A DNA stretch of 64,000 bases from Bacteroidia bacterium. GTDB lineage: Bacteria > Bacteroidota > Bacteroidia > 2-12-FULL-35-15. Shown piece after piece: positions 3,822 through 35,393 of the stretch. The notes under the pieces were generated by a model. The model saw nothing but the letters and a program-made list of their open reading frames with translations, made no database searches and was not told where the DNA came from. The number at the start of each line of letters is the position of its first letter. The stretch's first letter is position 1. The stretch covers positions 7,089-71,088 of the forward strand of contig JBBSPS010000001.1 in assembly GCA_038258655.1 (NCBI GenBank), written 5' to 3'. A program made the position numbers and the translations under genes.

Positions 3822-5225
3822 ATGGAATTGAGTAACATAAAATATGTTTATTTCCTTGGTATCGGCGGCATCGGCATGAGCGCACTAGCACGCTATTTTA
3901 AAGCTATGGGCAAAAATGTGAGCGGCTATGATAAAACTCCGACCAAACTTACGGATGAATTAATTGCTGAAGGAATCGATATTCATTTCGAAGATAATAT
4001 TCGTTTTATACCAAAAGCGATTAAAGAACTTCCTTATGATACAGAAAACATTTTAATCGTATATACGCCTGCCGTTCCAAAAGACCACAGCGAGTATGTT
4101 TTTTTTAGTTTAAATGGGTTTAACATTAAAAAACGTGCAGAAGTATTGGGGATGATAACATCCACCTCACATACAATCGCTGTGGCCGGAACGCATGGTA
4201 AAACAACAACATCATCATTGATCGCTCATATTTTAAAAACTGCAGGGCTTGATCCGTCTGCATTTTTAGGTGGTATTACACAAAATTATGGTACTAATTT
4301 ATTGTTGAGCTCAAATCTGAAAACTAACAACCAACAACTGACAACTAACGATTTAATAGTAGTAGAAGCCGATGAATACGATCGTTCATTCTTAACACTA
4401 CATCCTGAAATAGCAGTAATAACTTCCGTTGATCCGGATCATTTAGATATTTACGGTAATGAAAAATACATGCAGGAGTCCTATTCATTATTCGCGAGTC
4501 AGGTAAAATCAAAATTGATCTTAAAAAAAAGTATTGTATCTAAAATAAATGCCTCAAAAAAAGCAATTACGTATTCTGTTAGTGATCCTACAGCAGGTTA
4601 TTTTGCTCAAGAAATTGAAATTAAAGATGGAGCTTATCATTATGAGGTAGTTACTCCTACAAATGTATTTTATGATATAACCTTAGGGTTACCGGGCTTG
4701 CATAACGTAGAAAACTCAATAGCTGCTGTTGCTGTTGCCTGTGAAATGGGTATTTCAGAAGATAACATCCGCAAGGCACTAAGTTCATTCTGTGGGGTAA
4801 AAAGGCGATTTGATTACCAAATAAAAACAGACAAATTAATTTTTATTGATGATTACGCACATCATCCAGAAGAATTAAAAGCCTGCATCAGTTCTGCAAA
4901 GGAAATGTACCCGAATAAAAAAATTACCGGAATATTTCAGCCGCATTTATTTTCACGAACACGCGATTTCGCGGATGAGTTTGCCCGAAGCCTCGACCTG
5001 TTAGATGAATGTATTCTTATGGAAATTTATCCCGCACGTGAATTACCGATTGAAGGAGTGAATTCACAAATGCTACTGGATAAAATGAGATCAACGAATA
5101 AAAGTATTTGTAGTAAAGAAGAGTTGGTGGAAGAAGTAAGTAAACGAAAGTTAGATGTGTTGCTCACATTAGGAGCCGGTGATATTGATACGTTCGTAGA
5201 ACCGTTGAAGAATAAATTATTTTAA
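3822..5225 (+). CDS. murC: UDP-N-acetylmuramate--L-alanine ligase MurC
   Basis: N-terminal GIGGIGMSALA, P-loop GTHGKTTTSS, and a full-length Mur ligase architecture. Confidence 0.92.
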   Translation: MELSNIKYVYFLGIGGIGMSALARYFKAMGKNVSGYDKTPTKLTDELIAEGIDIHFEDNIRFIPKAIKELPYDTENILIVYTPAVPKDHSEYVFFSLNGFNIKKRAEVLGMITSTSHTIAVAGTHGKTTTSSLIAHILKTAGLDPSAFLGGITQNYGTNLLLSSNLKTNNQQLTTNDLIVVEADEYDRSFLTLHPEIAVITSVDPDHLDIYGNEKYMQESYSLFASQVKSKLILKKSIVSKINASKKAITYSVSDPTAGYFAQEIEIKDGAYHYEVVTPTNVFYDITLGLPGLHNVENSIAAVAVACEMGISEDNIRKALSSFCGVKRRFDYQIKTDKLIFIDDYAHHPEELKACISSAKEMYPNKKITGIFQPHLFSRTRDFADEFARSLDLLDECILMEIYPARELPIEGVNSQMLLDKMRSTNKSICSKEELVEEVSKRKLDVLLTLGAGDIDTFVEPLKNKLF

Positions 5226-5240
5226 AAAAGATAACACACA

Positions 5241-5285
5241 CTTCGACTACGCTCAGTGTGACAGTCAATCTGAGCGTAGTCGAAG
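5241..5285 (+). other. Perfect 16 bp inverted repeat (hairpin) in the murC-ftsQ spacer, with no downstream T-run
   Basis: CTTCGACTACGCTCAG, a 13 nt loop, then CTGAGCGTAGTCGAAG. Its arms are related to the hairpin at 35323-35380. It shares the 11-mer TCAATCTGAGC with 7605-7615. Confidence 0.6.
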
Positions 5286-5323
5286 ATTGTGGGAAGGGTA
5301 AATATTATTAGGTTGAATTATAA

Positions 5324-6296: not shown

Positions 6297-7565
6297 ATGG
6301 AACCATCAGAAATTGTAGTAGGCTTGGACATCGGAACAACAAAAATTGTGGCTATTGTAGGCCGCAGAAATGAATTCGGAAAAATTGAAATACTGGGAAT
6401 GGGGAAATCCGAGTCATTTGGTGTTGCACGTGGCGTAGTTCAAAATATTGACCAGACTGTGCAATCCATTCGCGCTGCCGTAGCTGAAGCCGAAACTAAA
6501 TCGGGAGTAGATATTAAAGTAGTGAATGTAGGCATTGCAGGGCAACATATAAAAAGTATGCAAAGTCGTGGCAGCAAAACACGTTCAAATATTGAAGAAG
6601 AAATTGCGCAAAAAGATATAGACTCCTTGATCGATGATATGTTTAAATTGATGATGCAGCCTGGTGAAGAAATTATTCATGTGCTTCCTCAGGAATACAT
6701 TATTGATAATGAACAAGGAATTAAAAATCCCATCGGTATGGCTGGGATCCGTCTGGAAGCCAATTTTCACATCATCACAGGGCAAATTGCTGCTGCACGA
6801 AATATTTATAAATGCGTTCACAAAGCAGGTTTAGAAGTTTCTGAATTAACATTGGAACCTCTCGCTTCCGCAGATGCTGTATTAAGTTCTGAAGAAAAAG
6901 AAGCAGGAGTTGTATTGGTTGATATTGGAGGCGGAACAACGGACATTGCTATTTTCCAGGATGGAATAATCCGTCATACTGCTGTAATTCCATTTGGTGG
7001 AAATGTAATTACGGAAGATATTAAAGAAGGCTGTACTATTATAAAAAACCAGGCAGAATTATTAAAAATAAAATTTGGTTCAGCTTTGGCAAGTGAGAAT
7101 CAGGAGAACGAAATAGTTTCCATTCCGGGATTAAGAGGTCGTGCTCACAAAGAAATTTCAGTACGAAATTTATCAGCGATCATACAAGCACGCATGGAAG
7201 AAATTGTAGAACATGTGTATTATGAAATTAAAAATTCCGGGTACGAAAAAAAACTGATCGCAGGGATTGTAGTTACGGGTGGTGGAGCCCAGTTGAAACA
7301 TGTTCCACAATTAGTGGAATACATTACCGGAATGGATACGCGGGTAGGTTATCCGAATGAGCATTTGGCAAAAGGGACACAGGATGTTGCCAGCCCGATG
7401 TTTGCAACCGCTGTAGGACTTGTTATGAAAGGATTACAAACCCTTGAAAAACAAAGTAAGAAAAATAGCATAACAAGTACAACAACAATTAAAGGGCATT
7501 CAGAAGAAAAATCAACAGGCTTTTTAGATAAATTAAAAAAGTTTTTTGATGATGATTCAGCTTAA
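6297..7565 (+). CDS. ftsA: Cell division protein FtsA
   Basis: Actin-like ATPase motifs VGLDIGTTKIVAIV and DIGGGTTDIAIF. Immediately precedes ftsZ. Confidence 0.92.
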   Translation: MEPSEIVVGLDIGTTKIVAIVGRRNEFGKIEILGMGKSESFGVARGVVQNIDQTVQSIRAAVAEAETKSGVDIKVVNVGIAGQHIKSMQSRGSKTRSNIEEEIAQKDIDSLIDDMFKLMMQPGEEIIHVLPQEYIIDNEQGIKNPIGMAGIRLEANFHIITGQIAAARNIYKCVHKAGLEVSELTLEPLASADAVLSSEEKEAGVVLVDIGGGTTDIAIFQDGIIRHTAVIPFGGNVITEDIKEGCTIIKNQAELLKIKFGSALASENQENEIVSIPGLRGRAHKEISVRNLSAIIQARMEEIVEHVYYEIKNSGYEKKLIAGIVVTGGGAQLKHVPQLVEYITGMDTRVGYPNEHLAKGTQDVASPMFATAVGLVMKGLQTLEKQSKKNSITSTTTIKGHSEEKSTGFLDKLKKFFDDDSA

Positions 7566-7584: not shown

Positions 7585-7626
7585 AGTGACGGAACTGCGC
7601 ATAATCAATCTGAGCCTGTCTCAGAG
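7585..7626 (+). other. Short structured element in the ftsA-ftsZ spacer, related to the murC-ftsQ hairpin
   Basis: Shares TCAATCTGAGC and a GTGACRG segment with 5255-5275. Contains a small CTGAG/CTCAG stem. Confidence 0.4.
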
Positions 7627-9508: not shown

Positions 9509-9533
9509 TTTCCGAAATAATCTTTGTAAAAAC

Positions 9534-9568
9534 AGGGTGTTGAGTTTTCAACACCCTATTTTTTTTAA
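9534..9568 (+). terminator. Rho-independent terminator closing the dcw cluster
   Basis: AGGGTGTTGA, loop gttt, TCAACACCCT, then ATTTTTTTT. Confidence 0.7.
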
Positions 9569-12758: not shown

Positions 12759-13035
12759 TTTAGAAATTTGACATTTTTTGCTTCCTATAATAAATAGGAT
12801 AAAAGGTAATTTATTTTTAAATATAGGTAAATAGTTTGACGCCAAAAATCCTTCATATTAATAAAAGACTATTCTTGTTTCATTACCTTCTGTAAACCCC
12901 AGGGCAACAATGCGTTTGTACTCGTAGGCGCAAACATTATTATTACGTATCACACGGAAGATATTTGGAGAAGGATTGGTTATTAAACAGGTTTTCAACC
13001 TGTTTAATGTTAGCCTGACAAGTTAAAAATTTGTC

Positions 13036-13326
13036 CTACTTATCAATCACCTTAGGCACTTTGAAATAATCGGAATCATGTTGAGGAGCATTTTTTAATG
13101 CTTCTTGTTGAGTAATATCATGTTTTACTTCATCTTCGCGTAATACATTCACCTCATCATTCATATATATCAATGGTTCTATATTGGTGGTATCTAATTC
13201 ATTTAATTTCTCAACAAATGCAAGCATATTATTCATATCCTTAATGATCTGCTCTTTGGCTTCGTTCTCAAATTCCAAACGTGCCAGGTGTGCTATTTTA
13301 TCTACTGTTTCGTTATCTATTTTCAT
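13036..13326 (-). CDS. gatC: Asp-tRNA(Asn)/Glu-tRNA(Gln) amidotransferase subunit C
   Basis: 96 aa; VDKIAHLARLEFENEA...IEPL is the GatC signature. Confidence 0.85.
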   Translation of the reverse strand: MKIDNETVDKIAHLARLEFENEAKEQIIKDMNNMLAFVEKLNELDTTNIEPLIYMNDEVNVLREDEVKHDITQQEALKNAPQHDSDYFKVPKVIDK

Positions 13327-13368
13327 ACTGTATTTTTTGACACAAATTTCACGAATTCTTCTGTTCTT

Positions 13369-14145
13369 TTATATTGCTGAAATTAATTTCGTATAAATTT
13401 TATTATTATACTCATTCAACTCATTCTGAATAATATCATACACTTTCGTCCGCAAAGATACTAAATCATTTTCCGTCATTCCAAGAGTAGAAATAGGTTC
13501 ATGGACTACGACCCTGCAAATACCGGGTCTTCCATACGCTTTAAAAAACCCGCCCATTTGCAATAGTTTCCAATTATTTAAAAATGTAATGGGTACAATA
13601 GGAACTTGTTTTTCAATCGCTAAACGAAAAGCACCATTTTTAAATCCACGCAATCTACCTTCACTTGAAGTGGTACCTTCAGGAAAAAGAAAAGCACTGT
13701 GTCCTTTTTCAATGTCGATGCCGGCACGTAAAAAAGCCCTGTGTGAAGCAACATTACTTTTACGGTCCACCAGAATATTCATTTCTTTAAAAAATATCCG
13801 AAATAATGGAGCTTTATCCAATTCCTGTTTGCCCATAAAAACGTAGTAGTTCGGAATTGCAAGGTAGCTTGAAATTATATCCAGGTAAGAAACATGATTG
13901 GAACAAAAGACAGCAGGTTGGGGCAAATCGTTTTTAGAAATTTTATAAGTTACTTTAACAAATAGTCCGGGAATAGTTAATATCCAACGTGCCCAAAATT
14001 TAAATAATAAAAAGGCTTTAGGGAACCATTTTTCTTTCAAAAGAAAAATATAAAACAGAGGAAATAATACAATAAGGCTCAAGACAAAGTTGAGCAGGAA
14101 TAACGTTTTCCAAAGTGCACGCGGTATAATTAACAGGTACTTCAT
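13369..14145 (-). CDS. 1-acyl-sn-glycerol-3-phosphate acyltransferase-like (LPLAT family)
   Basis: HX4D motif NHVSYLD, FPEGTTS motif, and N-terminal TM segments. Confidence 0.8.
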   Translation of the reverse strand: MKYLLIIPRALWKTLFLLNFVLSLIVLFPLFYIFLLKEKWFPKAFLLFKFWARWILTIPGLFVKVTYKISKNDLPQPAVFCSNHVSYLDIISSYLAIPNYYVFMGKQELDKAPLFRIFFKEMNILVDRKSNVASHRAFLRAGIDIEKGHSAFLFPEGTTSSEGRLRGFKNGAFRLAIEKQVPIVPITFLNNWKLLQMGGFFKAYGRPGICRVVVHEPISTLGMTENDLVSLRTKVYDIIQNELNEYNNKIYTKLISAI

Positions 14146-15406: not shown

Positions 15407-17116
15407 TTATTTCTTAATCACTTTAAATTCCAACCTTCTGTTTTTTGCATGTTCTTCTTCGGTGCATTTCACACCATTGGAACATTTGTTAAGTAAGCGG
15501 GTTTCACCATAACCTTTTCCTGTAATGCGTGTAGCGCTGATACCATGAGACACCATATAATCCACAGCTGCTTTAGCTCTCCTCTCCGATAACTTCAAAT
15601 TATAATCATCCGCACCCTGGGAATCTGTATGTGAACTGATCTCTATAGAAACATCAGGAACACCATTCATAATTGCTATTACCTTATCTAAGGTTTGCTT
15701 TGCATCAGGCAGAAGCTTTTCATCATTCACATTAAAATAAACATTTTCACTAATAACAAGGCCATCAACCAAAGTAACTCTTGGATCCATTATTTTTAAC
15801 CATGGATCATCCACATACATTTTACCCATCTTGTTTACTTCATTCGGAAGAAGTTCAAACTTAAAATGTTTGTCTTTATCTGATTGCACTTCTTTCACAG
15901 TATTTCCTTTTTCATCCGCCAATATCAATTTTTTAAGCAAAGAAATCTGCGGATCGGTTTCATCGAGGGAAATAATATAATTCTTATCAACCCCAATATA
16001 TTTGAACACAAACAAACCATCTTTATCTGTTTTAGAAGATTGAATGATTTCAGCTGTTTTATTCATCAGGTTCACTTTTACATTTATCAAAGGTTTTTTT
16101 GCCGGGTCATCACCTGATAACAATTTTCCTTTGATATCTATTTTCAATTCCGAATCATCCAGCGTTATTAATGATATTATATTAACATTATTCGGGAAAA
16201 TTTTAAATACAAACTTCCCTTTGATATCAGCATTCATAACCCCTACTTCTTTGTCATTTTTACCGGTAAAAATAACTATAGCATTTGGCGGAACCTGGTT
16301 GTTACTTTCATCTACTTTGATACTATAATTATTTCCGGGCAAAAAAACATTGAACACAAACGAACCCATAAAATTAGTTGTAGTGTTTTGAACAACTTCT
16401 TGTTTATCATTTACCAACATTACATTAACATTGACAATAGGTTTTGAAGGGTTTTCTCCTACAAGCAACTTTCCTGCAATCTTTATCATTTTCTTCCTTA
16501 GTTCATCTTCCTCTTTTCTTTTCTTCTCGTTCTGCTCGGCTTCCTGTTTTTCCTTTACTTGTTTTTCAGCCAACAACTTTTGATCCGCTAATGATTTTTG
16601 TTCATCAGCTTGCATTTCCGGAATGATATCATTATTAAAGTCTTTTATGTACTTATCATCAATAGCAAGGTCTTTACCATTAAATGCAATTTTCATGAAA
16701 GGATAATTGAATTTTTTACTGTTAATTTCTTTATCATGTGTATCATACATAATAAAATTAGATTGTACTCCTAACTTATTCACTAATTTTTTCGCTGGAA
16801 CATTTGCATCAATAAGCAAAAACATTTCTATGCAACCGGATGATTTAAAAACTGCTTTATAAATAGTTCCATATTCAAGATCTGTGAATTCAAACTCTCC
16901 ATCTTTACCTGTTTTTACAAATTTTATTTTTATTTCATTCTTATATAATTCCACGGTAGCATTGGCTAACGACACATCTCGTTTTTTAATTTTATCCGCC
17001 TTTTGTACTTGTCCGCGAAAAACAAAACTTCCTTTTTCCTGAGCAGAGGAGGAAAAGGGAAATAGTATTAAAAACAAAAATATCTGGCTGACGTTTGAAA
17101 AGAAATTTTTCATCAT
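15407..17116 (-). CDS. OmpA-family outer-membrane-associated protein with N-terminal CarboxypepD_reg-like repeats
   Basis: C-terminal OmpA domain (TDSQGADDYNLKLSERRAKAAVDYM...GYGE) and a signal peptide. Confidence 0.8.
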   Translation of the reverse strand: MMKNFFSNVSQIFLFLILFPFSSSAQEKGSFVFRGQVQKADKIKKRDVSLANATVELYKNEIKIKFVKTGKDGEFEFTDLEYGTIYKAVFKSSGCIEMFLLIDANVPAKKLVNKLGVQSNFIMYDTHDKEINSKKFNYPFMKIAFNGKDLAIDDKYIKDFNNDIIPEMQADEQKSLADQKLLAEKQVKEKQEAEQNEKKRKEEDELRKKMIKIAGKLLVGENPSKPIVNVNVMLVNDKQEVVQNTTTNFMGSFVFNVFLPGNNYSIKVDESNNQVPPNAIVIFTGKNDKEVGVMNADIKGKFVFKIFPNNVNIISLITLDDSELKIDIKGKLLSGDDPAKKPLINVKVNLMNKTAEIIQSSKTDKDGLFVFKYIGVDKNYIISLDETDPQISLLKKLILADEKGNTVKEVQSDKDKHFKFELLPNEVNKMGKMYVDDPWLKIMDPRVTLVDGLVISENVYFNVNDEKLLPDAKQTLDKVIAIMNGVPDVSIEISSHTDSQGADDYNLKLSERRAKAAVDYMVSHGISATRITGKGYGETRLLNKCSNGVKCTEEEHAKNRRLEFKVIKK

Positions 17117-17164
17117 TCTATATTCTATTTTAAAAGTTACACACGTTTTTAAAATTAAAATGAT

Positions 17165-18592
17165 CTAACCAAAAAGCAAACTAAACACCTCTTCAATTTT
17201 CCCAACCATTGTAATTTTAATGTGATAGTTTTTTAAGTCGAGTCCTTTTTTATTGTATTTAGAAATAAATATATGTTCGAAGCCTAATTTTTCAGCTTCT
17301 GAGATACGTTGATCTATACGGTTTACTGGACGTATTTCTCCGCTCAAACCAACTTCCCCGGCAAAGCAAATCTTTGCTGAAATAGGGATATCTTCATTAC
17401 TGGAAAGCACTGCACATACCAATGCCAGGTCAATTCCGGGATCTTCTACTTTTATTCCTCCTGCAATATTTAAAAATACATCTTTAATTCCTAAACGAAA
17501 ACCGCAGCGTTTTTCAAGCACTGCCAGTAACATGGATAATCTTCTCAAATCAAAACCTGTGGAAGAACGTTGCGGAGTTCCGTATGCAGCGCTGCTAACC
17601 AAAGCCTGTGTTTCGATTAACATAGGGCGCATACCTTCCATTGTAGCAGCGATAGCAACACCACTTACCAATTCCTCACGGGCAGTAATTAATATTTCGG
17701 ATGGGTTATTTACTTCACGCAAACCACTTCCCTGCATTTCGTAAATCCCTAATTCATTGGTGGAACCAAAACGATTTTTTGTGGTGCGCAACAATCGGTA
17801 CACATGATTTCTATCACCTTCAAATTGCAATACCGTGTCCACCATGTGCTCTAAAACCTTCGGTCCTGCAAGGCTTCCATCTTTGGTGATATGTCCAATC
17901 AAAAACACTGCTGTTCCACTTTCTTTCGCGTAACGCATCAATTCAGAAGTACATTCACGGATCTGGGAAACACTTCCGGGGGAAGATTCAATATGCGCGG
18001 AGTGTAATGTTTGAATGGAATCAACAATCAGTAAATTCGGTTCAAGGAGCTCTATTTGTTTGAAAATATTTTGTGTGGATGTTTCCGTCAGAATATAACA
18101 ATTGCCATATTTTTGAATTTCCATCTCTCCTCCTTTGGGGGAGCTGGAAGGTGCAACTATACGTTCGGCGCGCATTCGGATCTGTTGTTCGCTTTCTTCA
18201 CCTGATACATAGAGCACTTTCAGGTTTTTCATATTGAGTGCAACTTGCAACATCAATGTTGATTTCCCGATCCCCGGCTCACCGCCAAACAAAATTAAAG
18301 AGCCTGGAACCAGGCCACCACCAAGCACCCTGGAAAGTTCTGTATCATAAACAGAAATGCGGTGCTGTTCGGATAAACTAATCTCACTTATTAATTGAGG
18401 TTTTGAAGCGCGCTGGGTACTGGTACTTGCAATGCCAGGAATTTTTGTATCATCTCCTTTTGATACTACTTCTTCTACGTAAGTATTCCATTCATTGCAG
18501 GAAGGACAACGTCCAATCCATTTACCGGATTGCGTCCCACAGTTCTGACAAAAATAGGATGTTTTGGTTTTAGCCATGTTTTCAATGGGCAA
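17165..18592 (-). CDS. radA: DNA repair protein RadA/Sms
   Basis: C4 zinc finger CQNCG...CPSC, Walker A GGEPGIGKST, and a Lon-like C-terminal domain. The start is likely MAKTK at 18577. Confidence 0.92.
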   Translation of the reverse strand: MPIENMAKTKTSYFCQNCGTQSGKWIGRCPSCNEWNTYVEEVVSKGDDTKIPGIASTSTQRASKPQLISEISLSEQHRISVYDTELSRVLGGGLVPGSLILFGGEPGIGKSTLMLQVALNMKNLKVLYVSGEESEQQIRMRAERIVAPSSSPKGGEMEIQKYGNCYILTETSTQNIFKQIELLEPNLLIVDSIQTLHSAHIESSPGSVSQIRECTSELMRYAKESGTAVFLIGHITKDGSLAGPKVLEHMVDTVLQFEGDRNHVYRLLRTTKNRFGSTNELGIYEMQGSGLREVNNPSEILITAREELVSGVAIAATMEGMRPMLIETQALVSSAAYGTPQRSSTGFDLRRLSMLLAVLEKRCGFRLGIKDVFLNIAGGIKVEDPGIDLALVCAVLSSNEDIPISAKICFAGEVGLSGEIRPVNRIDQRISEAEKLGFEHIFISKYNKKGLDLKNYHIKITMVGKIEEVFSLLFG

Positions 18593-18615
18593 TTATTCAA
18601 TTGCAAATTAAGAAT

Positions 18616-19155
18616 TTAAGATGTCTTTATTTTTTTCTCAATTAGTGTTGTAGAATATCCTTCTAAAAATTCTATTGTTTTTACTTCTCCTCCATTTGCT
18701 TTAACATTATCAGAGCCTACAATGTATTTTTTATTTTTCGGATCGGTTATGTTTGCATCATAATCAGCGCCCTTTACAAGTATATATGGCCTGATAAAAT
18801 TAATCAGGTCCAATGGGGTATCCTCATCAAATAAAATTACAGCGCTTACAAAACTTAAAGATGCCAATACCATTGCACGTGATTTTTCGTCTTGTATCGG
18901 GCGTGAATTGCTTTTCCCCAAGCGTTTTACTGAAGCATCGGTATTTACACCAATAATTAATTCATCACCTAAATCAGATGCCTTTGCCAGATAATCAATA
19001 TGTCCCTGATGCAAAATGTCAAAACAGCCATTGGTAAAAACAATCTTATGTTCCTTAAAATGCCATACTAATAAAGGTTTTAACAATGTATCACACGTAA
19101 ATATCTTTGATTGGATAATTTCTATCGCCTGTAATTTTTTTGTAAAGGGGATCAT
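18616..19155 (-). CDS. D-glycero-beta-D-manno-heptose 1-phosphate adenylyltransferase-like cytidylyltransferase (RfaE domain II type)
   Basis: [15 protein letters not shown] nucleotidyltransferase motif; 179 aa. Confidence 0.6.
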
Positions 19156-19203
19156 TGGAAATACGTATTACGATTTTAGGTGGACAATTTATTAAATGTA
19201 AAA

Positions 19204-20175
19204 CTATTTTTTGGAACTGAACACTACTTTATTTACCCAGGTTTTCCCCCACTCATTTATTTCATCCGCAGTCCATAACTCTGGATAAAAAATACGTTTT
19301 TGGAAACGTGGTGGTAAATATTTTTGCCAGTTAGTCCCGCCAGTAGCCGCAATATCTTCCGGAGATTTTTGCAAATATCGTACTGCGGATTTATAATGGG
19401 ATAGCGGCCAATTGATATTTACATTCACATCCAACTGGCGCAAAACTGAAATAACCTGCTCATTTTTTTGATCAGTGGCCGGCAAGGATCTATAAAGTGA
19501 TAATAGGTTTTTTTGCTTCAGTTTTTTTGCAAGTTGTATGAACTGCCCAGAATATTTTTTTTCGAACTGAACAAGTGTTAATGTTTTTTTACCTGTCGCA
19601 AGTTCCGTTGCCCCTTCCTTCCAATACAAGTGTTCATACATTTTTTCAATTTGTCCATCATTTATTTCATCAGAAAAATTTTCACGGGCATCTTTAGCAA
19701 CAAGATTTTTGATTGTGGTAGAAGAAATTTCTATCATACGGTATTGCCCTGATTGAAAACCACTTGCAGGCAACAGGCTCATTCGGAATTTTAAAAATTG
19801 TTGGGGATCCATTCCATCCACCATAATATCAAAAGAAGTGATAAGCGCTTCAAAATACCGATTAATGCGGTTGGTACGTTCTATAAAAAATGCAACAGCT
19901 ATGTTTTCTTTTTCCGATAGTTGCTCAAATTCATGCAAACAAAGTTTAAAATACAATTCTGTTATCTGATGATACATGATAAAAATTTCTTCATCCGGAA
20001 TGCTTGTTTTGGGATGTTGCAAACTTAATAGTGTATCCAAATGGATATAATCCCAATAAGTAAGATAATCTGTATGCAATAATCCATCAAGATAGGAAAC
20101 AAGATTTTGTCCCATCGCCTGATATTTTTCATCAAGTAATTTTATGCGTTCGGTAATTTCAGGCGTTAGCTCCAT
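19204..20175 (-). CDS. kynA: Tryptophan 2,3-dioxygenase
   Basis: YWDYIHLDTLLSLQHP and IFIMYHQITELYFKL match the conserved blocks of bacterial TDO. Confidence 0.7.
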   Translation of the reverse strand: MELTPEITERIKLLDEKYQAMGQNLVSYLDGLLHTDYLTYWDYIHLDTLLSLQHPKTSIPDEEIFIMYHQITELYFKLCLHEFEQLSEKENIAVAFFIERTNRINRYFEALITSFDIMVDGMDPQQFLKFRMSLLPASGFQSGQYRMIEISSTTIKNLVAKDARENFSDEINDGQIEKMYEHLYWKEGATELATGKKTLTLVQFEKKYSGQFIQLAKKLKQKNLLSLYRSLPATDQKNEQVISVLRQLDVNVNINWPLSHYKSAVRYLQKSPEDIAATGGTNWQKYLPPRFQKRIFYPELWTADEINEWGKTWVNKVVFSSKK

Positions 20176-35270: not shown

Positions 35271-35279
35271 TAAAATATA

Positions 35280-35310
35280 ATGCCTTACTATTAGTCACAA
35301 TAGCAAGGCA
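35280..35310 (-). terminator. Candidate terminator for the convergent LTXXQ-protein gene
   Basis: TGCCTTaCTATT / AATAGCAAGGCA stem with a 6 nt loop, followed on the minus strand by TTATATTTTA. Confidence 0.4.
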
Positions 35311-35322
35311 TTATATAAATAT

Positions 35323-35380
35323 CATTCTGAGTATAGAACATCTTATCTTAAAAGCAAGATTCTTCGCTATGCTCAGAATG
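35323..35380. other. 14 bp inverted repeat whose arms match the murC-ftsQ hairpin arms
   Basis: CATTCTGAGTATAG, a 30 nt spacer, then CTATGCTCAGAATG. Its 3' side (CTTCGCTATGCTCAG) resembles CTTCGACTACGCTCAG at 5241. Confidence 0.5.
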
Positions 35381-35393
35381 GACTGGAATGAAA

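Follow-up and report, generated by a model that had tools for sequence, protein, structure and literature searches.

The hairpin between murC and ftsQ

The 64-kb window, that is, the whole stretch of DNA analysed here (contig JBBSPS010000001.1 of a Bacteroidia bacterium, positions 7,089 to 71,088), includes the division and cell wall (dcw) operon, in which a Mur ligase gene (murC by synteny) is accompanied by the genes for an FtsQ homologue, FtsA and FtsZ. The named relatives of this FtsQ are from metagenome-assembled genomes (MAGs) of uncultured Bacteroidota. The murC-ftsQ spacer contains a hairpin located about 10 nt past the murC stop and about 35 nt ahead of the ftsQ start. Its arms, at 5241-5256 (CTTCGACTACGCTCAG) and 5270-5285 (CTGAGCGTAGTCGAAG), are perfectly complementary over 16 bp and enclose a 13-nt loop, so that the structure and the coordinates given in a preliminary description of this DNA were both correct. 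We propose, with a probability of roughly 80%, that two small, oriented DNA repeats of the stem-loop type, each of about 26-30 nt, form the hairpin as a convergent doublet, and that they belong to a repeat class related to the targets of the Ssn nucleases and are carried as a passenger in the dcw operon.

The stem had been considered too long and too perfect to be due to chance, and the statistics agreed. RNA folding of the hairpin region gave -36.6 kcal/mol, against -16.1 +/- 2.5 kcal/mol for shuffled sequences (z = -8.2; none of 200 shuffles equalled it), and the opposite strand behaved similarly (z = -8.5). The 16-mer of the arm occurs at two sites only in the window, even when up to three mismatches are allowed, and shuffles average 0.07 matches. 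The statement that the hairpin is not a canonical terminator also held: no T-run is present on either side of the 16-bp stem, the bases 3' of which read ATTGTGGGAAGGG, and a terminator scan of the window did not call it. The Rfam search of the whole window produced no gathering-level match and, at the hairpin locus with E-values up to 10, only chance-level matches that were at least 33 bits under threshold.

Two inverted units make up the hairpin

The hairpin region is composed of two copies of a smaller unit in opposite orientations. Each unit is a short stem-loop in which a stem of its own, 5-6 bp long, encloses a conserved core of 12 nt, and GAC follows. In the orientation of the published NTS repeat described below, the unit consists of GTC, a variable stem of 5-6 nt, the core GAGCGNAGTCGA and the complementary stem. 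The features at the locus are the following.

5237-5262, unit 1, NTS-like orientation (GTC first) on the minus strand; on the plus strand CACACT (5237-5242), core TCGACTACGCTC (5243-5254), AGTGTG (5255-5260) and GAC (5260-5262)
5263, spacer, the single base A between the units; the centre reads GAC-A-GTC (5260-5266)
5264-5289, unit 2, NTS-like orientation on the plus strand; GTC (5264-5266), CAATCT (5266-5271), core GAGCGTAGTCGA (5272-5283) and AGATTG (5284-5289)
5241-5285, the long 16-bp hairpin, arms 5241-5256 and 5270-5285; both units hold an identical 16-nt CT+core+AG

On the minus strand (5289-5266) unit 2 reads CAATCT-TCGACTACGCTC-AGATTG. The perfect 16-bp stem exists because the two inverted units share the identical CT+core+AG. 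In addition, since the units abut at GAC-A-GTC, each DNA strand bears one unit in the recognised orientation. Both were matched by the covariance model of the family described in the next section, unit 1 on the plus strand at 5234-5265 (43.4 bits, E = 1.5e-10) and unit 2 on the minus strand at 5261-5292 (36.2 bits, E = 2.2e-8).

A dispersed family with covarying stems

A pattern in which only the core and GAC were fixed was used to search IMG/VR contigs; at least 120 contigs matched, and 140 matches were analysed. The triplet located 5' of CTTCG was exactly complementary to the triplet after CTCAG in 92 of the 140 matches, while chance predicts 1 in 64. The complementary triplets were diverse (ATT/AAT, ATC/GAT, ATG/CAT, ACC/GGT, GCG/CGC and others). 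Conservation stopped sharply beyond about 28 nt, with a flat base composition outside, and the consensus was GAGATY-CTTCGCTNCGCTCAG-RATGACA. In the pattern-selected sets GAC/GTC is fixed by the search and its conservation is not independent. A second set, consisting of 125 core-selected, equal-length, core-anchored units of the 12-nt-core subtype found in the window, was used to assess covariation and to build the covariance model. In this set the C of GAC was at least 90% conserved and the G and A at least 70%. The six-pair stem was paired in 84.5% of the cells, and there were 138 double-sided stem changes compared to 45 +/- 5 in shuffles (0 of 500 reached the observed value) and at most 36 in slid controls. 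Single units lying between co-directional genes were found 33 times in the sense and 37 times in the antisense orientation; this lack of bias indicates that their function is not tied to the transcript strand.

Units were found in Bacteroidota, Planctomycetota, Chloroflexota, Acidobacteriota, Cyanobacteria and Alphaproteobacteria, with the unit and doublet architecture being alike in all of them, and a BLAST search of plasmids added cyanobacteria (Planktothrix, Calothrix, Oscillatoria), Granulicella, Hymenobacter and Novosphingobium. The proposal that the hairpin is a member of a dispersed family was therefore borne out. The arm consensus that accompanied it, CTTCGnCTAYGCTCAG, turned out to be too narrow, as the actual unit is a stem, TCG(A/G)CTNCGCTC or TCGCTNCGCTC, the complementary stem and GAC.

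Other identities considered for the repeat were discarded. An excess of G:T wobbles at the outer pair (18 G:T and 2 A:C) was taken as a possible sign of a strand-specific RNA function, but was not accepted as decisive since the 3' T may simply be a conserved base and the orientation relative to genes is random. Reading CUGAGCG...GAAG as a hammerhead ribozyme, or the repeat as a dif/Xer site, an attC site or a CRISPR repeat, was rejected on sequence because the required core bases or array context are absent. Sequence strings of the repeat, looked up in the full-text literature, led to nothing beyond primers and chance matches, and the literature on small dispersed repeats and on proteins of the 23S intervening sequence (IVS) or four-helix-bundle type gave no relevant lead.

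To describe the paired arrangement, the pattern CGCTCAG-NNN-GAC-N(0-12)-GTC-NNN-CTGAGCG was searched in species genomes. At least 120 loci from many phyla were found, and 121 doublets were analysed; the taxa and counts that follow refer to the matches listed. Bacteroidota were represented by Draconibacterium, Chitinophaga, Dyadobacter and MAGs of Bacteroidales, Cytophagales and Flavobacteriales, and other bacteria by Planctomycetota (Scalindua), Chloroflexota, Acidobacteriota, Ignavibacteriaceae, Gemmatimonadales and others. A few high-G+C matches look like chance. The 1-nt spacer present in the window was the commonest (28 of 121). Each unit of a doublet keeps its own stem, the first being different from the second, which implies that selection or copying preserves the small stem-loops and not the outer part of the long hairpin. 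Certain composite doublets recurred at unrelated sites: AGACT+ACCCT 12 times, mainly in Draconibacterium and Prolixibacteraceae, ATCCT+ACACT four times (at least three in Scalindua) and ATTCT+ATCCT four times (at least three in Acidobacteriota). The doublets were mostly intergenic, with 18 of the 121 inside open reading frames (ORFs) according to a crude ORF caller, and they avoided divergent regions (5, versus 20 convergent and 46 co-directional). As a separate observation, many doublets of Draconibacterium and Prolixibacteraceae (L184, L186, L188, L214, L218, L252 and others) are directly preceded by an A-run and followed by a T-run, and so resemble bidirectional intrinsic terminators.

Turnover at orthologous murC-ftsQ spacers

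A metagenome scan with FtsQ identified four loci. In close relatives, whose FtsQ proteins are 84-89% identical, the spacer site is occupied but variable. Locus L129 has one unit, orthologous to unit 2 as judged by the shared right flank, and its stem has changed in a compensated manner from AATCT/AGATT to AGTCT/AGACT. Since only a single unit is kept, there is no long hairpin at that locus. L130 has a truncated unit 1, and L131 and L132 have a convergent doublet in which the cores include an extra nested hairpin. Cores split in this way, such as TCGATAC[ATCTCGCTGTTGGCGAGA]CTACTC, were observed at L131 2546-2677 (identical in L132) and at about 1440-1490 and 1800-1850 of L324. Nested hairpins of this kind agree with the published tolerance of Ssn for loop extensions (PMC11893778). 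No element was detected in the murC-ftsQ spacers, of 8-40 nt, of the more distant L001, L006, L007, L133 and L134. In L002 (9941-9995) and L008 (about 520-600) a different hairpin is formed by GAGAT-type heptamer-like words (GAGTATTGAGAT ... ATCTCAATACTCACATCTC) that do not constitute an SRM-like unit. A search for conserved structure across orthologous spacers, which had been suggested as a check, thus found two units, one, a remnant or none, a distribution expected of a mobile or decaying repeat and not of a conserved operon regulator.

These comparisons bear on the possibility that the hairpin acts in cis on the RNA of the dcw operon, either as an RNase processing or stability determinant or as a partial attenuator that tunes ftsQAZ. 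The high stability of the fold as RNA, its location between the murC stop and the ftsQ start, and the presence of another hairpin at the same place in L002 and L008 are compatible with such a role. REP elements stabilise upstream mRNA, and by analogy an incidental effect is plausible. Nonetheless, we consider a dedicated RNA element unlikely. The spacers of L001, L006, L007 and L133 are devoid of any hairpin, L129 manages with a single unit, covariation maintains the stem of each unit and not the outer pairing of the long hairpin, the units occupy unrelated intergenic contexts in many phyla with no bias in the orientation of transcription, and Rfam contributed no relevant match. Among the roles that had been put forward as candidates, REP-like element came closest, and those of RNase processing or stability element, small RNA site and protein-binding site modulating ftsQAZ found no support. 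Modulation of ftsQAZ in particular is at odds with the failure of orthologous spacers to conserve the element, with the balance of sense and antisense copies and with the covariation of the small stem-loops instead of the long hairpin.

Association with small GIY-YIG genes

The units are associated with small genes for single-domain GIY-YIG proteins. On a Planktothrix plasmid (L135, NZ_LR882964.1) a 94-aa GIY-YIG gene has units and tandem half-units around it; the sequence of its product shows Tyr17 and Glu64 at the positions that were mutated in the work reported in PMC11893778. All five small GIY-YIG genes present in loci selected by their units (this plasmid, L152, L161, L175 and L224) are flanked by units. 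The converse selection, in which genes were chosen by protein homology alone, gave the same result. Units with the core found in the window stand on either side of each of four genes, which come from Christiangramia forsetii, Flavivirga eckloniae, Allomuricauda ruestringensis and a JGI contig; the units read GTC-stem-GAGCGNAGTCGA-stem upstream and stem-TCGACTGCGCTC-stem-GAC downstream. A homologue from a Sphingomonas plasmid has the same core on both sides with GAA instead of GAC after the stem, and one from Methylobacterium is accompanied by expanded-core variants. Within five homology-chosen loci, amounting to about 44 kb, there were 18 covariance-model matches at 500 nt or less from the gene versus 4 elsewhere, i.e., an approximately 26-fold higher density. 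Repeats on the 5' and 3' sides of the gene were present in L152, L175, L224, L317, L319, L320, L322 and L323, the exact core type of the window being included, and units stood on both sides of all the small single-domain GIY-YIG genes that were inspected in bacterial, as opposed to viral, sequence. The flanked proteins have 94-105 aa, PF01541 as the sole domain and no NCBIfam match, and their nearest solved structures are the UPF0213 proteins 1ZG2 and 1YWL.

The spacer downstream of ruvB illustrates the turnover of the arrangement. It holds unit-ssn-unit in C. forsetii (L317 4958-5346, with the gene at 5001-5318), a degraded solo unit, GTCACAGAGCGTAGTCGAAGTGA, in F. eckloniae (L319 3281-3306) and no unit in A. 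ruestringensis (L322 2617-2902). At four Bacteroidota loci (L152 358-845, L175 3804-4325, L224 4714-5234 and L319 4866-5418) the GIY-YIG gene has a full convergent doublet on each side. It is as if a cassette of left end (LE), ssn and right end (RE) sat in the centre of a doublet, and solo doublets could then be empty targets or remnants similar to solo long terminal repeats.

Some further details of these loci were noted. L320 (4650-5520) shows, on either side of the GIY-YIG gene, a tandem duplication of about 120 nt that include the 3' end of this gene plus a unit. On the Planktothrix plasmid, half-units (GCTCAGAATGACA or GTCATTCTGAG) occur three times in tandem, with spacers of about 8-14 nt, beside full units (15420-15580, 17060-17300, 18540-18620 and 19170-19400), and an ORF whose annotation is that of a 1560-aa MmeI enzyme contains several units. 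The same plasmid contains, at 13000-13860, a 'four helix bundle protein' gene (Avd / 23S-IVS-protein-like) between inverted heptamer arrays (ATTTACG/CGTAAAT, CCCCAAT), which place the gene in the loop of a large hairpin.

Other copies in the window

Apart from the hairpin, the window contains these family members.

35359-35383, plus strand, third unit, 11-nt-core subtype; ATTCT-TCGCTATGCTC-AGAAT (35359-35379), then G and GAC; between the DUF4890 gene and recG
35321-35338, plus strand, decayed inverted partner of the third unit; ATC ATTCT GAG TATAG AA, with a truncated core and GTC changed to ATC
7604-7620, plus strand, possible decayed half-unit, uncertain; in the ftsA-ftsZ spacer, ATC AATCT GAGCCTGTC, then diverging

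The third unit fits the family consensus GAGATYCTTCGCTNCGCTCAGRATGACA, and the covariance model, which describes the 12-nt-core subtype, did not detect it. Together with its decayed partner, 20 nt away, it forms a 'left end ... right end' pair that encloses no gene. A recurrence of the arm near 35.3 kb had been reported, and it corresponds to this pair. The other recurrence reported, that of an 11-mer at 7605-7615, stands only in part: TCAATCTGAGC is present, but it is at best a decayed half-unit, as ATCAATCTGAGCCTGTC is followed by divergence and this part of the ftsA-ftsZ spacer is unconserved in relatives. The core variant of this half-unit, GAGCCTGTCGA, is the one found in the L129 unit. 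In all, the window has three clear units and one or two remnants, all of them intergenic.

Three other structures are located near these copies. An 18-bp hairpin with 94% complementarity (ATATAATGCCTTACTATT / AATAGCAAGGCATTATAT) occupies 35275-35316, just upstream of the 35.3-kb pair and also between the DUF4890 gene and recG. A small hairpin, TCTGAG/CTCAGA, is found at 7607-7626 in the non-conserved half of the ftsA-ftsZ spacer, and directly 3' of ftsZ, at 9528-9563, there is a terminator-like hairpin bordered by A and T runs.

Comparison with NTS repeats and Ssn nucleases

Chenal et al. (Nat Commun 2025; PMC11893778) described the Ssn nucleases and the N. meningitidis NTS, CGTCATTCCCGCGMAVGCGGGAATCYRG, an oriented subset of the Neisseria dRS3 repeats. 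They generalised the NTS as 'Ssn-related motifs' (SRM), which flank ssnA, a 94-aa single-domain GIY-YIG gene (cd10448). According to that report SsnA binds the hairpin only as single-stranded DNA (ssDNA) and on one strand only, cuts a few bases upstream and is inactive on RNA and duplex DNA; the four cases characterised there bind the hairpin as ssDNA, on one strand, and cut a few bases 5' of GTC. SsnA in Neisseria lowers transformation by NTS-containing DNA, and the NTS-ssnA-NTS arrangement is like that of an insertion sequence (IS) and was compared with REP/RAYT (PMC11893778).

The family studied here resembles the NTS/SRM repeats of that report in several respects. Both are oriented hairpin repeats of about 28 nt that start with GTC, occur in several phyla, and flank small single-domain GIY-YIG genes (94-105 aa here) on both sides in an IS-like arrangement. 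The present family also appears to be multi-copy and mostly intergenic, like the NTS. GTC is immediately 5' of the palindrome, as in the SRM, in unit 2 on the plus strand (GTC-AATCT-GAGCGTAGTCGA-AGATT) and likewise in unit 1 on the minus strand. Read with GTC first, the family consensus GTCATTCTGAGCGAAGCGAAGAATC aligns to the NTS over GTCATTC, GCG, AAGCG, GAAT and C. We infer that the flanked GIY-YIG proteins are probably true Ssn enzymes, that they would cut this variant, and that the source genome may encode one. The ties of the family to such genes, whose characterised homologues are reported to act on ssDNA and not on RNA (PMC11893778), also argue against the role in RNA processing contemplated in the preliminary description.

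Several results weigh against this assignment. The published SRM string, HGTCWYN(0-2)YYVSBRHN(0-5)WNVSBRGN(0-2)RNCYNB, had no match in the window; units 1 to 3 and the consensus failed, while the NTS used as a control matched, and none of 292 collected family units matched it either. The C directly after the palindrome, which was the most critical base for binding by N. meningitidis SsnA (PMC11893778), is replaced by T or G in the doublet of the window (...AGATTG TG, ...AGTGTG TG), and the 11-nt-core subfamily does have the C (...AGAAT C TC). In the present family the apical 11-12 nt are unpaired and the most conserved part and the short 5-6 bp stem covaries, whereas the Neisseria NTS has a long and conserved stem and a loop reported as dispensable (PMC11893778). 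No GIY-YIG or four-helix-bundle gene was found in the 64-kb window by tblastn, phmmer or hidden Markov model searches. Finally, among the small GIY-YIG homologues that viral contigs of IMG/VR encode (L256-L316; 32-48% identity), units were found nearby in only one case of 61, so the association is not universal for this protein family. The viral homologues, many of which are on contigs longer than 100 kb, either recognise other motifs or form a different functional subgroup. For these reasons the hairpin is assigned to the Ssn-related class by association and resemblance and not by the published operational definition of SRM.

Another alternative is that the hairpin is an element of the REP/BIME/REPIN type mobilised by a RAYT, i.e., an IS200/IS605-like Y1 transposase, or a miniature inverted-repeat transposable element of a conventional IS, in either case unrelated to GIY-YIG nucleases. 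The architecture is indeed similar to that of the REP doublets of Enterobacteria and Pseudomonas: short palindromic hairpin units, inverted doublets that form a larger, dispersed hairpin, an intergenic location 3' of genes, lineage-specific composite doublets at unrelated sites as with REPINs, and a cognate enzyme gene flanked by repeats that are recognised as ssDNA hairpins. We regard this origin as quite improbable because the flanked genes code for a GIY-YIG nuclease and not an HUH/Y1 transposase in every bacterial locus examined, no systematic search for RAYT genes having been made, the 5' signature is GTC and not the GTAG typical of REP, and the core is conserved across phyla whereas REPs are species-specific. 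Furthermore, there are no target-site duplications, and conservation is confined to about 28 nt. A Rho-independent or factor-dependent transcription terminator between murC and ftsQ is very improbable, for although the stable G+C-rich stem downstream of a gene recalls Rho-independent terminators and inverted DNA uptake sequence (DUS) pairs, and family doublets with a 5' A-run and a 3' T-run are common in Draconibacterium and Prolixibacteraceae, the window copy lacks a T-run on either side, was not called by the scan, is surrounded by the co-directional genes of a conserved essential operon, shows covarying sub-stems and apical sequence conservation, and is lacking in close relatives.

Proposed mechanism and implications

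If the hairpin is a passenger doublet of Ssn-related repeats, its units would act as DNA. When the region becomes single-stranded, as in incoming transforming DNA or during replication or repair, a unit would adopt its small stem-loop form and be bound, on the GTC-first strand, by a cognate Ssn-like nuclease whose gene would lie elsewhere in the genome; the enzyme would then nick 5' of GTC. For the doublet this predicts cuts close to its centre on either strand, between about 5255 and 5271, and a site would be offered whichever strand is exposed. The repeats may spread or persist alongside IS-like 'repeat-ssn-repeat' cassettes, and solo units and doublets would be remnants or non-autonomous copies of the cassettes left in intergenic DNA, mostly 3' of genes. 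An effect of the hairpin on the murC-ftsQ mRNA would be incidental.

We also suggest, tentatively, that the family is a distinct Ssn-associated repeat class, far wider than what the published SRM search captures, characterised by an unpaired apical core (TCG(A)CTNCGCTC) and a short covarying stem, in which the GAC-N-GTC doublet, with one cleavable site per strand, is the functional and dispersing unit. Tight convergent doublets are frequent here and do not seem to figure in the SRM description in PMC11893778. The doublet may also serve the LE-ssn-RE cassette as a site of landing or excision. If this suggestion is correct, Ssn/SRM would be a domesticated repeat-nuclease system similar to REPIN/RAYT with a nearly pan-bacterial range.

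The interpretation as a passenger repeat explains a seemingly regulatory hairpin in an essential operon and guards against over-reading such hairpins as RNA switches. Annotators could flag the many spurious short ORFs that these repeats generate. The conserved apical core, the covarying stem and the tight two-strand doublets could guide the identification of new Ssn/target pairs for ssDNA tools. For the family itself, the findings indicate that the Ssn-linked repeat class probably reaches well past the published search motif and includes uncultured Bacteroidota.

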